The translations under genes were made by a program, and so were the position numbers. A stretch of DNA of 64,000 bases, from assembly GCA_947624505.1 (NCBI GenBank), contig CANQKO010000001.1, positions 8,948 through 72,947 of the forward strand, given 5' to 3'. The stretch comes from an uncultured Bacilli bacterium. GTDB lineage: Bacteria > Bacillota_I > Bacilli_A > RF39 > UBA660. The notes below the pieces were generated by a model that ran no database searches, was not told the origin of the DNA, and saw nothing but the letters and a program-made list of their open reading frames with translations. The stretch's first letter is position 1. Each line of letters begins with the position of its first letter. Of this stretch, positions 21,269-26,769 are shown piece after piece.

Positions 21269-21973
21269 TTAATATTTTACTTTAACGAGATAAAGACCAT
21301 TAGGGCTTACGGTAGGAAGCCTTTTTTCTGTTTCTCTCTTAAGCATCATTTTTATAGTTTCGGCATTTACTTTACCTTTGCCTACTTCCACTAAAGCTCC
21401 AACTAAATTACGAACCATATACCGATAAAAACCATATCCTTCGAATTTTAAATAAATAATTTTATTAAATTGCCAAATTTTTATTTTTTTAATTGTACTA
21501 GTATAATCATCACGATAACCCGCCGTAAAATTACAAAAATCATTGGTGCCTAAAAATAATTTACTAGCATTTTGCATTTTACCAAGATCTAAATAATAAT
21601 TAACATTTAAATAATAATCACTATTTCTTTTATTAGATAGATCAATTTTATATAGATATATTTTTTCTTTAACAGCAAAACGCGAATGAAAATTATCATC
21701 AACTTTTTTTACTTTTTTAATATGAATATCTTTTAGACATTTATTTAATTTATATTTTAAATTATTTATCTTTTTATCTGTTTCAAAATGAACTACTTGG
21801 CCTTTAGCGTGAACCCCACGATCAGTTCGTCCTGCCCCTTTAATTAATATTTCTTCATCATATATTTTACTTAAAACTTTTTCTAATTCTCCTTGAATAT
21901 TTCTTACATTATTTTGTCTTTGAAAGCCCTTAAACTTAGAGCCATCATAACTAATTACCATTTTTATTTTCAT
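21269..21973 (-). CDS. truA: tRNA pseudouridine(38-40) synthase
   Basis: YDGSKFKGFQRQ...GAGRTDRGVHAKGQVVHF, which includes the catalytic Asp motif. Confidence 0.93.
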   Translation of the reverse strand: MKIKMVISYDGSKFKGFQRQNNVRNIQGELEKVLSKIYDEEILIKGAGRTDRGVHAKGQVVHFETDKKINNLKYKLNKCLKDIHIKKVKKVDDNFHSRFAVKEKIYLYKIDLSNKRNSDYYLNVNYYLDLGKMQNASKLFLGTNDFCNFTAGYRDDYTSTIKKIKIWQFNKIIYLKFEGYGFYRYMVRNLVGALVEVGKGKVNAETIKMMLKRETEKRLPTVSPNGLYLVKVKY

Positions 21974-22530
21974 TAAACACTCCGATAAATATCTTTTATG
22001 AGTTCATATATATCAATTGTTTTATTTAATATAACTTTTGAAGAATTAACTTCATTTATAAAAGAAATTATTTTAGGACATTTAGTATATTTATATAAAT
22101 TATTATCAAAAAAATCATTAGTGGTATACAAGACCTTTTTATCTTTTATCACTACTATCATTTTAACTAAATTAAAAAACACTTTAATATCATTATCAAT
22201 AACGACTATTTTTTTATGATAACTATTATTTAATTTTAATAATAATTTTTTAAAATACTCAATATCTTTATAATTTAAATATTTAGATAAATTCCCCACT
22301 ACGATAAGATCATTATTAAATTTAGTTAATAAATCAATTTTAAATAGTTCATTTAAAGTCAAATCACTTATTTTTTTATCTAAATAACTATCATCAAGAA
22401 GAACCATTTTTAAAGCTTTCGATATATCTTTAATACTTAAATCTTTAACATAACCATCTTTTATCTTTAATTCATAACTACTAATTAAACCAATTATTTC
22501 ATATTCTTTTAGTAAACTATTTATTTCCAT
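21973..22530 (-). CDS. Truncated, catalytically degenerate EcfA'-like (ABC ATPase C-terminal half) protein
   Basis: 185 aa. DLTLNELFKIDLL...LIVVGNLSKYLN...KKIVVIDNDIKVFF...IVVIKDKKVLYTTNDFF lines up with the LSGGQ / Walker B / H-loop / C-terminal region of ECF-transporter ATPases, but every catalytic residue is replaced. There is no Walker A half. Confidence 0.5.
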   Translation of the reverse strand: MEINSLLKEYEIIGLISSYELKIKDGYVKDLSIKDISKALKMVLLDDSYLDKKISDLTLNELFKIDLLTKFNNDLIVVGNLSKYLNYKDIEYFKKLLLKLNNSYHKKIVVIDNDIKVFFNLVKMIVVIKDKKVLYTTNDFFDNNLYKYTKCPKIISFINEVNSSKVILNKTIDIYELIKDIYRSV

Positions 22531-22973
22531 AATATTCCTTTCAAAGTTTTATTATCTAAATATATATTATCAACTAAATTATAATCTTTTAATAAAAGAG
22601 ATAATTCAACCATAAAAGGTAGTGATAAGCCAATTCTTTTTAATAACTTTTCATTTTTTAAAACTTCCATAGTTGGTCCTTCAATTAAAATATTTTCTTT
22701 ATCATAAATAATTAAATACTTAGTTAATAAAGCTTCTTCCATATTATTAGTATAATTTATAAATAGTATCTGATGATCTATAAGTATTTGATATATTTCT
22801 TTTATTTTATCTTCTTCTAATTCATTAAAAACATTAAAGAAAATAATCTTTTGTTTATTTAATAAATCTTCTATTTTAAAACTTTTATCAATAACATAAT
22901 AATCTTGATACTTTTTTAATAAATCTTTATTTATATTGGTACTAACTAAAGTAACGTTTGTTATTATATTCAT
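22521..22973 (-). CDS. Truncated, catalytically degenerate EcfA-like protein
   Basis: 150 aa. KIIFFNVFNELEEDKIKEIYQIL...ILFINYTNNMEEALLTKYLIIYDKENILIEGPTMEVL...LKRIGLSLPFMVELSLLLKDYNL...LKGILW parallels the EcfA segment ILILDE...ITHD...GTPEEIF...IGLDLPF...ELW. Confidence 0.55.
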   Translation of the reverse strand: MNIITNVTLVSTNINKDLLKKYQDYYVIDKSFKIEDLLNKQKIIFFNVFNELEEDKIKEIYQILIDHQILFINYTNNMEEALLTKYLIIYDKENILIEGPTMEVLKNEKLLKRIGLSLPFMVELSLLLKDYNLVDNIYLDNKTLKGILWK

Positions 22974-22977
22974 AATA

Positions 22978-23883
22978 CTATCTCTTTTCTTTATTTAAAA
23001 AACTCTCTTTTATTTGTTTTAATTTACGAAAGTGATGATTAATACCTGATTTACCAACTTTATAATCGGTTTCTAAAGATATAATTTGAGCTAGTTCTTG
23101 GTATGATACTTCAGGATATTTTTTACGATAAGTAATCACTAATTGCATTTTTTCATCCATCAAAGGTATTAAATTATTTTCTTCTAAAAAGTGTATATCT
23201 TCTAATTGTGATAAACCACTTTTGATGGTTTTCTCTTGATTTGCAAGTTCACAATTATTAAGGCGATTAACCATATTTTTATGATCACGATAGATTCTTG
23301 TATCTTCAAATTCAAACAAAGAATTAATAGCCCTAAACATCTTGATTAAATCACTAATACTTTCACTCATTTTAATATAAGCAATATATTTATAACCTCT
23401 TTTAATTACTTTAGCATTAAGATGAAAATAATTAAGTAATTTAGCAATATATTTAGCATCAGTTTCTTTATCTAAAATAAACTCTAAATGATAACCACTT
23501 GTTTTGGGGTTAGAAACATTACCAACACCTAAGAAAGCTCCTTTTAAAAAAGCAATTTTTTCTTCATCACTATCAAGAAGCGGTAATTCTTTAATATTAA
23601 TAAATTCTTTTATGTATTCGATTTTATCATATACTTCTAAAATATATATTTGTTTTACCCGAAATCTTTTTTGAATTCTGACAATTATTTTAGGCCTTAC
23701 TTCAAATACTTCTTTTAAAATGGTATAGATAAGTCTAGTAACGGAAGCATTTTCTAAAGTAATAGTTAATTTATCTTTTATTAATGAATTATATCTTAAA
23801 AATCCTTCAATAATGGCTCTCTTTTCAATTTCATTATTATCTAGTTTACTTATTTCTTCTTTTAATCTAGTTGTAAATGTCAT
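22978..23883 (-). CDS. whiA: DNA-binding sporulation/cell-division regulator WhiA
   Basis: MTFTTRLKEEISKL..., LAGLIDADG-like degenerate repeats (FLKGAFLGVG) and a C-terminal HTH (SYQELAQIISLETDYKVGKSGINHHFRKL). I prefer the start at 23883 over the ORF-track 23895. Confidence 0.88.
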   Translation of the reverse strand: MTFTTRLKEEISKLDNNEIEKRAIIEGFLRYNSLIKDKLTITLENASVTRLIYTILKEVFEVRPKIIVRIQKRFRVKQIYILEVYDKIEYIKEFINIKELPLLDSDEEKIAFLKGAFLGVGNVSNPKTSGYHLEFILDKETDAKYIAKLLNYFHLNAKVIKRGYKYIAYIKMSESISDLIKMFRAINSLFEFEDTRIYRDHKNMVNRLNNCELANQEKTIKSGLSQLEDIHFLEENNLIPLMDEKMQLVITYRKKYPEVSYQELAQIISLETDYKVGKSGINHHFRKLKQIKESFLNKEKR

Positions 23884-23979
23884 ATTTATTCCCATTCCTT
23901 TTTATATAGATTATTTTAACATAATTAATATTTAATGAAAACAAAAAATGTTGAATTATTGCATCAACATTTTTATATT

Positions 23980-26081: not shown

Positions 26082-26769
26082 GTGACTTATAACTTCCTTT
26101 CAAGTAATCTCCCGTTAATACACCGTGTTCAATTAAAAGAACTCTTTTCTTCATTCTATTAACGATTTCTTTATCGTGAGTAGCCATTATAACCGTGGTT
26201 TTTAAATCTTTATTAATATTATCGATTACTTTCATTATTTCTTTAGAAGTATCAGGATCTAAGTTACCAGTTGGTTCATCACATATAAGTAATTTTGGCT
26301 CATTAACTATAGCTCTTGCAATACATACTCTTTGTTGTTCACCACCAGATAATTGATGAGGAAAACTGCGCACCTTTTCTTTTAAACCAACGATTTCAAT
26401 AGCTTTCATAACTTTAGGTCTTATTTCTTTAGCGGATACTCCTAAACACTCTAAAGCAAAAGCTACATTTTCATAAACAGTTAATTTAGGAAGCAATTTA
26501 AAGTCTTGAAAGACAACACCAATTTTTCTTCTTAACTTATAAACTTTACCATTTCTAAGTTTAGCAACATTAACACCCCCAACAATGACACTACCCTTAG
26601 TCGGTTTTTCTTCTCTATAAAGCATTTTAATAAACGTTGATTTACCACTTGCAGTATGACCAATGACAAAAACGAATTCGCCCTTTTCAATCTCTACTGA
26701 TAAATCAGCTAAAGCCGTAACACCCGTTGAATAAGTTTTATTAACATTTTTTAATTCAATAAACTTCAT
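26068..26769 (-). CDS. ftsE: Cell-division ATP-binding protein FtsE
   Basis: Walker A GHTASGKST, signature LSGGEQQRVCIARA and Walker B LLICDEPTGNLD. Confidence 0.92.
   Translation of the reverse strand: MKFIELKNVNKTYSTGVTALADLSVEIEKGEFVFVIGHTASGKSTFIKMLYREEKPTKGSVIVGGVNVAKLRNGKVYKLRRKIGVVFQDFKLLPKLTVYENVAFALECLGVSAKEIRPKVMKAIEIVGLKEKVRSFPHQLSGGEQQRVCIARAIVNEPKLLICDEPTGNLDPDTSKEIMKVIDNINKDLKTTVIMATHDKEIVNRMKKRVLLIEHGVLTGDYLKGSYKSHESI

Follow-up and report, generated by a model that had tools for sequence, protein, structure and literature searches.

Firmicutes take up vitamins mainly by energy-coupling factor (ECF) transporters, whose ATPases have, to our knowledge, so far been regarded purely as motors. 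In established ECF structures, the Q-loop and helical subdomain of the ATP-binding cassette (ABC) ATPase form the groove that receives the coupling helices of EcfT, whilst the C-terminal domains of EcfA and EcfA' are the constitutive dimer contact. As references for the group-II systems we take L. delbrueckii ECF-FolT/PanT (5JSZ, 5D3M, 8BMS), L. brevis 4HUQ, T. maritima EcfA-A' 4HLU and CbiO 5X3X/4MKI. ABC heterodimers can be asymmetric, one of the ATP sites being degenerate; examples such as TM287/288 and CFTR with its nucleotide-binding domain (NBD) 1 keep at least one working site and are still transporters. The ABC importer ATPases MalK, MetN and ModC have an additional C-terminal domain, through which constitutive dimer contacts are made and which binds regulators or ligands. 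We know of no regulator or ligand for the ECF C-terminal domain, and full-text searches of the literature turned up no account of EcfA pairs that are truncated or lack EcfT. Here we analyse such a pair, encoded in a stretch of 64,000 nucleotides (nt) from an uncultured Bacilli bacterium (contig CANQKO010000001.1 of assembly GCA_947624505.1, positions 8,948 to 72,947 of the forward strand), hereafter the window. Two open reading frames (ORFs) lying between whiA and truA, ORF1 (A1', 150 amino acids (aa), 22521..22973) and ORF2 (A2', 185 aa, 21973..22530), both on the minus strand as are the other features of the locus below, are miniaturised, motif-dead descendants of EcfA1 and EcfA2 (EcfA'). 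We think it probable that they are working proteins derived from ecfA1 and ecfA2, forming an ATP-independent A1'-A2' heterodimer with a role outside transport, rather than decaying genes.

The ancestry of the pair emerges from profile and structure comparisons. A Pfam search gave no ABC_tran (PF00005) match for either ORF at E<=10. An NCBIfam ECF ATPase model aligned with residues 57-150 of ORF1 (model positions 180-274 of 279, E=1.1e-10) and ORF2 gave a marginal ABC match only. Whole-protein scores were under the curated cut-offs (35.9 bits vs 315 for TIGR04520, 41.2 vs 392 for PRK13635). Searched against the PDB, genus profiles built from 70 (ORF1) and 88 (ORF2) orthologues matched residues 178-277 of L. 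delbrueckii EcfA1 (E=1.6e-11) and residues 125-222 of the ABC cassette MJ0796 (E=3e-7), respectively. When hhalign compared them with profiles built for canonical EcfA1 and EcfA2 of this family and class, ORF1 aligned through residues 44-150 with 167-277 of EcfA1 (99.8%, E=2e-28), and ORF2 through residues 34-185 with 123-282 of EcfA2 (99.6%, E=3.4e-24); ORF2 is also 36-43% identical to proteins of 262-276 aa that carry PF00005. Monomer models from AlphaFold2 (AF2) are confident, with a predicted local distance difference test score (pLDDT) of 91.5 and a predicted template modelling score (pTM) of 0.83 for ORF1, and 93.8 and 0.86 for ORF2; both contain a RecA-like core and an ECF-type C-terminal helical domain, the full NBD being present only in part. 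The top Foldseek matches of the ORF1 model are CbiO and EcfA1 (TMq ~0.6 over 114-118 aligned columns, gaps included) and those of the ORF2 model are ECF ATPases (TMq 0.67-0.73 over 190-210 columns, again gaps included), the best PDB matches being CbiO (5X3X, 4MKI), EcfA1/A2 (5D3M, 8BMP/8BMS) and EcfA-A' (4HLU). Together, these comparisons show that ORF1 descends from ecfA1 and ORF2 from ecfA2. An earlier note on this DNA, made from the letters alone, had aligned the motifs of both ORFs with those of ECF ATPases by eye and named profile-profile alignment against EcfA as one way to check them; HMMER, MAFFT and hhalign reproduce its alignments, the hhalign scores above pass that check, and the predicted folds agree. 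A single frameshifted full-length gene is ruled out: ORF1 aligns to A1 and ORF2 to its paralogue A2, and the 10-nt overlap between them is the ancestral A/A' junction. Annotation pipelines label genes of this type 'hypothetical' or, wrongly, ABC ATPases.

The same note had read every catalytic residue as substituted, and in the alignments Walker A, Walker B, signature and H-loop are indeed all lost. In place of the Walker A consensus GxxGxGK[ST], ORF1 has STNINKD, and in ORF2 the loop is deleted. The Walker B strand reads KIIFFN in ORF1 (canonical IIIFDE; residues 42-53, KIIFFNVFNELE, 22815..22850; also placed by hhalign), where Asp-Glu has become Phe-Asn, and LIVVGN in ORF2 (canonical VIVLDE; residues 75-86, LIVVGNLSKYLN, 22273..22308; also placed by hhalign), where it has become Gly-Asn, and the catalytic Glu is gone from both. 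The ABC signature LSGGQ is absent from ORF1 and survives in ORF2 as the remnant LTLNELFK (residues 57-64, 22339..22362; alignments and hhalign), the Q-loop is absent from both, and the His of the H-loop is replaced by Asn in the NYTNN of ORF1 (canonical SITHD; residues 73-77, 22743..22757) and the IDND of ORF2 (canonical VTHD; residues 111-114, 22189..22200). Since there is no P-loop, no nucleotide binding is predicted, and going by the established ABC mechanism the two proteins are predicted to be incapable of binding or hydrolysing ATP. Could a Walker-A half be encoded elsewhere, as part of a split gene? This too is ruled out: the N-terminal-only P-loop matches in the genome all lie inside frames of 626-943 aa, which we take to be other P-loop proteins.

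Both proteins end in an ECF-type C-terminal domain, helical and the most constrained segment of the protein in ORF1 (residues 101-150, …LLKRIGLSLPFMVELSLLLKDYNL…LWK, 22524..22673), and conserved family-wide in ORF2 (residues 141-185, …P-K-I-I-x-F-I…D-I-x-E-L-I-K-D-I-Y-R-S-V, 21976..22110). The earlier note had called the ORFs truncated C-terminal halves with Walker A missing; this stands for the loss of the P-loop and Q-loop, but not for ORF1 as a whole, which appears to keep a dead Walker-A strand-loop-helix and to have shrunk by internal deletion instead. The candidate remnant is residues 7-22 (VTLVSTNINKDLLKKY, 22908..22955), which lack a Gly-rich loop and GK[ST] and are nearly invariant within the genus. 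AF2 predicts a strand at 7-11, a helix at 16-22, a strand at 26-28 and a helix at 34-37, and a homology series through sister genera runs from FLTGVSAAGKTALLKEI (L049) by way of IILGTPKKTKNSLNEEL (L083) and TIISTNYNYHDDIIFFL (L080) to the window's own sequence. The N-terminal 43 residues, a strand-loop-helix followed by a hairpin, are conserved in the genus (13/43 columns at 90% or more), with a ratio of non-synonymous to synonymous substitution rates (dN/dS, or omega) of 0.22. In ORF2, EIIGLIS (residues 11-17, 22480..22500; AF2 strand 12-16) would be what remains of the strand before Walker A, the P-loop having been deleted. For both proteins the mapping of these N-terminal stretches, which hhalign leaves unaligned, is one that we infer from the homology series and the models. 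Considering the conserved strand-loop-helix, ORF1 would have shrunk mainly by internal deletion, together with loss of the N-terminal beta subdomain: a mini-NBD, in which the strands of the RecA core are kept and the Q-loop, helical subdomain and signature have been cut out. In ORF2 the pre-Walker-A strand (IIGLI) would survive, as would the last part of the helical subdomain, the helix that carries the signature, the core and the C-terminal domain.

Are such reduced genes still maintained by selection? The open frames themselves are hardly accidental: at the window's base composition, frames of 150 and 185 codons are expected 0.003 and 0.00008 times per 64 kb in all six frames, and lengths so far above expectation exclude a chance origin, which the earlier note had already judged unlikely. 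Of the 24 other species in the genus, 23 have both ORFs intact (51-72% identity), and the order whiA-A1'-A2'-truA with the 10-nt overlap recurs in all 20 genus loci examined, with lengths of 148-156 and 185-188 aa; clustering at 90% identity gives 76 distinct clusters for ORF1 and ~94 for ORF2. Pairwise Nei-Gojobori estimates, made here in an extremely AT-rich genome, give a dN/dS in unsaturated pairs (dS 0.2-0.6) of 0.06-0.23 for ORF1 and 0.04-0.21 for ORF2, with 0.07-0.22 for truA and 0.02-0.10 for whiA. Pooling four independent pairs, the segments of ORF1 give, from N- to C-terminus, 0.22, 0.21 and 0.07, and those of ORF2 0.28, 0.12, 0.12 and 0.23; in the C-terminal domain of ORF1, 22/50 columns are at least 90% conserved. 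These values show purifying selection along the whole length of both proteins, and low dN/dS in intact, syntenic orthologues argues against neutral decay. The pair therefore has the marks of a pseudoenzyme, namely homology to an enzyme family, loss of the catalytic residues and purifying selection. That the ORFs are retained genes rather than simple pseudogenes had been proposed from the window alone, with dN/dS across orthologues as a suggested check; intact frames in 23/24 species and ratios of 0.04-0.23, comparable to truA, support it.

Two oddities within the genus deserve a mention. In two species (L020 and L027; G005:C2 and G002:C42) ORF1 is conserved from its N-terminus on as an open frame, yet none of ATG, GTG and TTG stands there; AAGGAG is followed by ATT or ATA, which suggests a non-canonical start codon. 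One metagenome-assembled genome (MAG) of the genus carries a second A1/A2/truA locus on a 10-kb contig (L049, G020:C42:2197-3548), with products of 243 and 209 aa that are 40% and 33% identical to the window ORFs; this is probably a contig co-binned from another genus (bin contamination 2%) and no paralogue.

The arrangement of the locus raises a different possibility. ORF1 and ORF2 occupy the canonical Bacillota gene position ecfA-ecfA'-(ecfT)-truA, in a minus-strand run of ftsX, an M23 peptidase gene, whiA, ORF1, ORF2 and truA without terminators, beyond which there is a promoter-like site, followed by the nadE operon. The stop codon of whiA (22978..23895; Pfam WhiA domains), the upstream neighbour of ORF1 in the genus, is followed after 4 nt by the start of ORF1. 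The 10-nt overlap ATGGAAATAA (22521..22530) encodes the W-K-stop of ORF1 and the M-E-I of ORF2, and the ATG of truA (tRNA pseudouridine synthase A, 21269..21973; Pfam PF01416, E=2.7e-31) shares its A with the last A of the ORF2 stop codon TAA. Re-reading the sequence gave exactly the coordinates, lengths, 10-nt and 1-nt overlaps and 4-nt whiA gap that the earlier note had listed. Read directly from the sequence, the GGAG Shine-Dalgarno motif of truA (21980..21983) falls within the final codons of ORF2 (CGG AGT), those of its conserved C-terminal Arg-Ser. Across the wider family, 52 of 59 listed locus architectures have the 10-nt overlap, canonical ecfA-ecfA' pairs with EcfT among them, and in 57/59 truA follows the pair, or the gene at the EcfT position, mostly overlapping it by 1 or 4 nt. 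A terminator scan found no terminator-like site on the coding strand between whiA and truA; promoter-like sites are not enriched (79 found vs 80 expected in shuffles), and none between whiA and truA is convincing as an internal promoter. Perhaps, then, the ORFs are kept only for the translation of truA or the stability of its mRNA, as an open frame through which ribosomes read, with products that have no role of their own? The near-constant place of truA at the end of the locus, the overlapping stop and start codons, the embedded Shine-Dalgarno motif and the lack of a terminator or convincing internal promoter would all suit such an expression spacer. However, a spacer would constrain only the open frame and its last codons, yet omega is 0.07-0.28 along both proteins, the strongest constraint lies in the C-terminal domain of ORF1 some 560-710 nt upstream of truA, and both folds are confidently predicted. 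In addition, where lineages have deleted the pair, truA comes straight after whiA or after an SDR gene, so it does not need the pair. We consider a pure spacer very unlikely.

If the two proteins are not a spacer but a working pair, as we favour, what has become of the transporter that they once powered? The window belongs to a MAG of 1.23 Mb in 60 contigs, in which, at 94.5% completeness, no intact ECF ATPase scores over cut-off. The best match to the ECF ATPase models (window 26116-26760) adjoins ftsX and is for that reason taken as FtsE. No CbiQ/EcfT (PF02361) match was found in the genome at E<=0.1, nor any match to the S-component families PF12822 and PF07155, the BioY, ThiT and QueT models not having been searched genome-wide; and none of the 20 membrane ORFs screened, out of 29 plausible ones (130-340 aa, five or more hydrophobic segments), matched an ECF family. 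The absence extends to relatives: EcfT and PF12822 are absent from all 4 genus genomes in the order-level sample, and PF07155 from 29 of 31 genus genomes, the window's included in both cases. These searches of ATPases, CbiQ and S-components bear out the earlier observation that the locus has no EcfT, and answer its question of whether a functional ecfA1A2T set exists elsewhere in the genome: none was found. Four orphan membrane proteins of 189-302 aa, each with at least five hydrophobic segments, have no credible Pfam family, the only match, on one of them, being at E=0.0085; they are encoded at C12:16423-17097(-), C17:10404-11312(+), C25:6511-7362(-) and C26:5739-6308(+) of the window's genome (G000).

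It could be argued that the dead dimer is still attached to a transporter, as a structural cap or gate without motor function on a highly diverged membrane partner, be it a cryptic EcfT- or S-like protein or another permease. Related genera do keep a non-CbiQ protein with 4-5 transmembrane segments (TM) at the EcfT position beside dead full-length pairs, small polytopic membrane proteins without a Pfam family number at least four in the window's genome, and its assembly is only 94.5% complete. Against this, nothing lies between ORF2 and truA in the window's genus, ORF1 no longer has the Q-loop and helical subdomain that form the groove receiving EcfT, no CbiQ, PF12822 or PF07155 protein was found in the genome, and the missing P-loop leaves the pair with no energy input. 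We regard a cap or gate of this kind as quite improbable, though it has a better claim than the spacer.

A working, non-transport pair becomes easier to understand when the locus is followed across the family, which we did in 121 genomes from 73 genera (0.6-1.6 Mb), examining 60 loci. The family probably belongs to the order RF39, since Ca. Faecenecus gallistercoris, assigned to GTDB CAG-988, order RF39, family CAG-611 (PMC8035907), nests within the family tree; the named relatives are this organism and 'uncultured Bacilli bacterium' MAGs from rabbit gut. A1-like proteins were found in 102/121 genomes and A2-like proteins in 85/121, and in genomes with an A1 but no A2 match all six loci fetched do contain A2; EcfT scores over cut-off in only 28/121, and a PF12822 S-component in 1/121. 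The loci can be arranged as a graded series. At one end, A1 (254-300 aa) and A2 (260-283 aa) are followed by EcfT and truA, often with one ATP site already degenerate; a second state is the same save for a 4-5-TM protein without CbiQ signal at the EcfT position. In a third, full-length pairs are followed by truA, with an A1 that has GxNxxGKT but no catalytic Glu or His and an A2 whose P-loop has a 3-residue deletion. Then come pairs of intermediate length (197-252 and 198-229 aa), pairs of a short A1 with a long A2 (161-193 and 263-265 aa) and, finally, pairs in which both are short (149-172 and 181-191 aa). The 10-nt A1/A2 overlap is retained throughout. So are the conserved C-terminal domains, with or without EcfT: G-x-x-LPF-x-x-[DE]-LS…LWK in A1 and P-x-I-x-x-F…[DE]-L-[IL]-K-x-[IV]-Y-R in A2. 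A search of 1.84 billion representatives returned 421 proteins at E<=1e-10, the best 150 of which run continuously from ~150 to 270 aa.

In trees made by quick search and supported by the Shimodaira-Hasegawa-like approximate likelihood-ratio test (SH-aLRT) only, the 150+185 state forms one clade (SH-aLRT 100; concatenated truA, A1 C-terminus and A2 C-terminus) of three genera, g1, g36 and g68, separated by ~0.5 substitutions per site. The doubly short pair has at least one further independent origin (L122), and shortening has happened repeatedly. Another independent miniature form is found in genus g73 (L137, G144:C6), where an A1 of 166 aa, an A2 of 168 aa and a 163-aa membrane protein precede truA. 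Asymmetry is seen even among the EcfT-bearing members (L062, L107-L113), whose ecfA-ecfA'-ecfT modules look functional: in L062 the A1 signature reads LNNSTKQK and the A2 H-loop has Asn, with Walker A/B/H of A1 and the signature of A2 intact. One consensus and one degenerate ATP site thus existed before EcfT was lost. In seven loci (L060, L098, L100, L103, L104, L106, L121), proteins of 178-228 aa with 4-5 TM stand between A2 and truA, several with R-[FL]-Y-N near the C-terminus; against Pfam, the membrane proteins at the EcfT position give no CbiQ match even at E<=1. These proteins of 178-228 aa may be extremely diverged EcfT.

The series does not stop at miniature pairs. In one genome (G090; L126, G090:C4:128781-132479) whiA and truA are adjacent with a 6-nt gap, the pair having been cleanly deleted, and in six others (G045, G051, G071, G073, G101, G108) truA directly follows the SDR gene that elsewhere precedes A1; the pair-loss set was defined as genomes without an A1 or A2 match. 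A1' and A2' are always retained together or lost together. Such losses invite the reading that the pair is in slow decay, as non-functional relics en route to deletion whose apparent conservation is owed only to the divergence being recent, or to selection against truncated products that do harm. A one-way series that ends in clean deletion (whiA-truA in G090, SDR-truA in the six genomes), lengths that run continuously from 149 to 300 aa across lineages and a strongly AT-shifted composition are what such decay would leave. It would also, at ~0.1 stop per random codon of the window's composition, break neutral ORFs quickly, yet there are no stops or frameshifts in 23/24 species despite dS of 0.2-1 and more, lengths vary by no more than 1-3 residues, and omega is low in every segment. 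Further, the 150+185 architecture is common to three genera ~0.5 substitutions per site apart, and both proteins have compact, confident predicted folds. Slow decay strikes us as highly improbable, the least likely of the three alternatives, each of which is in conflict with at least one result.

Nonetheless, several observations weigh against a retained, functional pair and should be set beside those in its favour. G090 groups with the window's short clade in the truA-only tree (SH-aLRT 94), and the truA tree requires at least four losses of the pair, of which strongly supported branches alone force three. The GC content of ORF1 and ORF2 is 17% vs 24-30% in the neighbours, and at second codon positions 13-14% vs 24-33%. 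At long range, the median non-synonymous proportion (pN) is 0.27 for the pair vs 0.15-0.23 in its neighbours, a sign of looser constraint, and its amino-acid divergence is greater than that of whiA and somewhat greater than that of truA. The AT shift and the divergence alike fit a comparatively weak constraint. Lastly, a mirror-tree comparison gave no specific signal of A1'-A2' co-evolution (partial r 0.32 vs 0.42 for whiA-truA). As to composition, F, Y, I, N and K make up 45-48% of the residues of ORF1 and ORF2. The deletion of the pair in several lineages implies that its function is dispensable in some backgrounds; its role, in other words, would be useful but not indispensable.

How might a motor have become something else? 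We propose that one ATP site degenerated first, that EcfT and the S-components were then lost, that the remaining catalytic residues followed, and that deletions finally took out most of the Walker-A loop together with the Q-loop and helical subdomain. The end state would be a compact remnant of the RecA-like core with the ECF-specific C-terminal domain in each protein, capable neither of using ATP nor of docking to EcfT. A1' and A2' would be made 1:1 through the conserved 10-nt overlap, presumably by translational coupling, and would associate through their C-terminal domains into a constitutive heterodimer like EcfA-EcfA'; we infer this dimer from the conserved C-terminal domains, the overlap, and the joint retention and loss of the two genes. 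Because the P-loop is gone from the window pair, the property under selection cannot be nucleotide sensing, and the nucleotide-independent dimer may rather serve in binding, as a scaffold or in regulation, a role that would already have been present in the full-length pair.

Taken further, EcfA-EcfA' of Bacillota in general might have a second function, independent of transport and nucleotide, that resides in the C-terminal dimerisation module and the RecA-core remnant, of which the window pair would be the minimum. We consider this broader claim unlikely, though if it were true, the same moonlighting role would be expected in the canonical EcfAA' of cultivated Firmicutes. Such a second function may be connected with TruA or with translation, given that ecfA-ecfA' and truA remain linked after the loss of EcfT. 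Whatever the pair does, a radiation of abundant, uncultured gut Bacilli dismantled a transporter and yet kept both of its ATPase genes, which in three genera persist at half to two-thirds of normal size, without an ATP site and still under purifying selection. This amounts to a natural deletion experiment, one that marks the part of EcfA/EcfA' kept without transport, the C-terminal dimer module and core remnant, and it supplies a compact protein pair with which to look for a partner. It also prompts the question how vitamins are acquired by these auxotrophic organisms, whose reduced genomes have few recognisable ECF parts.

Compared with the known systems, the window pair resembles group-II EcfA1/EcfA2 in its homology and, in the predicted structures, in its RecA-like core strands and ECF-specific C-terminal helical domain, and it resembles the canonical pairs of its own family in the gene order ecfA-ecfA'-(ecfT)-truA and the 10-nt A/A' overlap. 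It differs from group-II EcfA1/EcfA2 in length (~55% of normal for ORF1, ~65% for ORF2), in having no P-loop, catalytic Glu, LSGGQ, H-loop His or Q-loop, in the missing helical subdomain of ORF1, and in a genome without EcfT or S-component. The MalK, MetN and ModC C-terminal domains, which belong to a different fold family, are an analogy only, but offer a precedent for a non-catalytic role of the best-conserved part. With asymmetric ABC heterodimers and pseudoenzymes the pair shares the loss of catalytic residues with retention of fold and selection; unlike TM287/288 and CFTR, it has neither site left and lacks at least a third of each domain. It also has close counterparts in the full-length dead pairs without EcfT in sister genera (L064, L095-L097), which have the same lineage, locus and C-terminal domains and a Walker-B Glu and H-loop His that are dead alike, whereas the full-length dead pair of Ca. 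Faecenecus gallistercoris (L060) keeps a membrane protein at the EcfT position. In those sister genera, however, A1 (248-270 aa) keeps GxNxxGKT and all subdomains and could still bind nucleotide; the window pair has no such Walker-A-like loop, and so whatever is selected here is nucleotide-independent.

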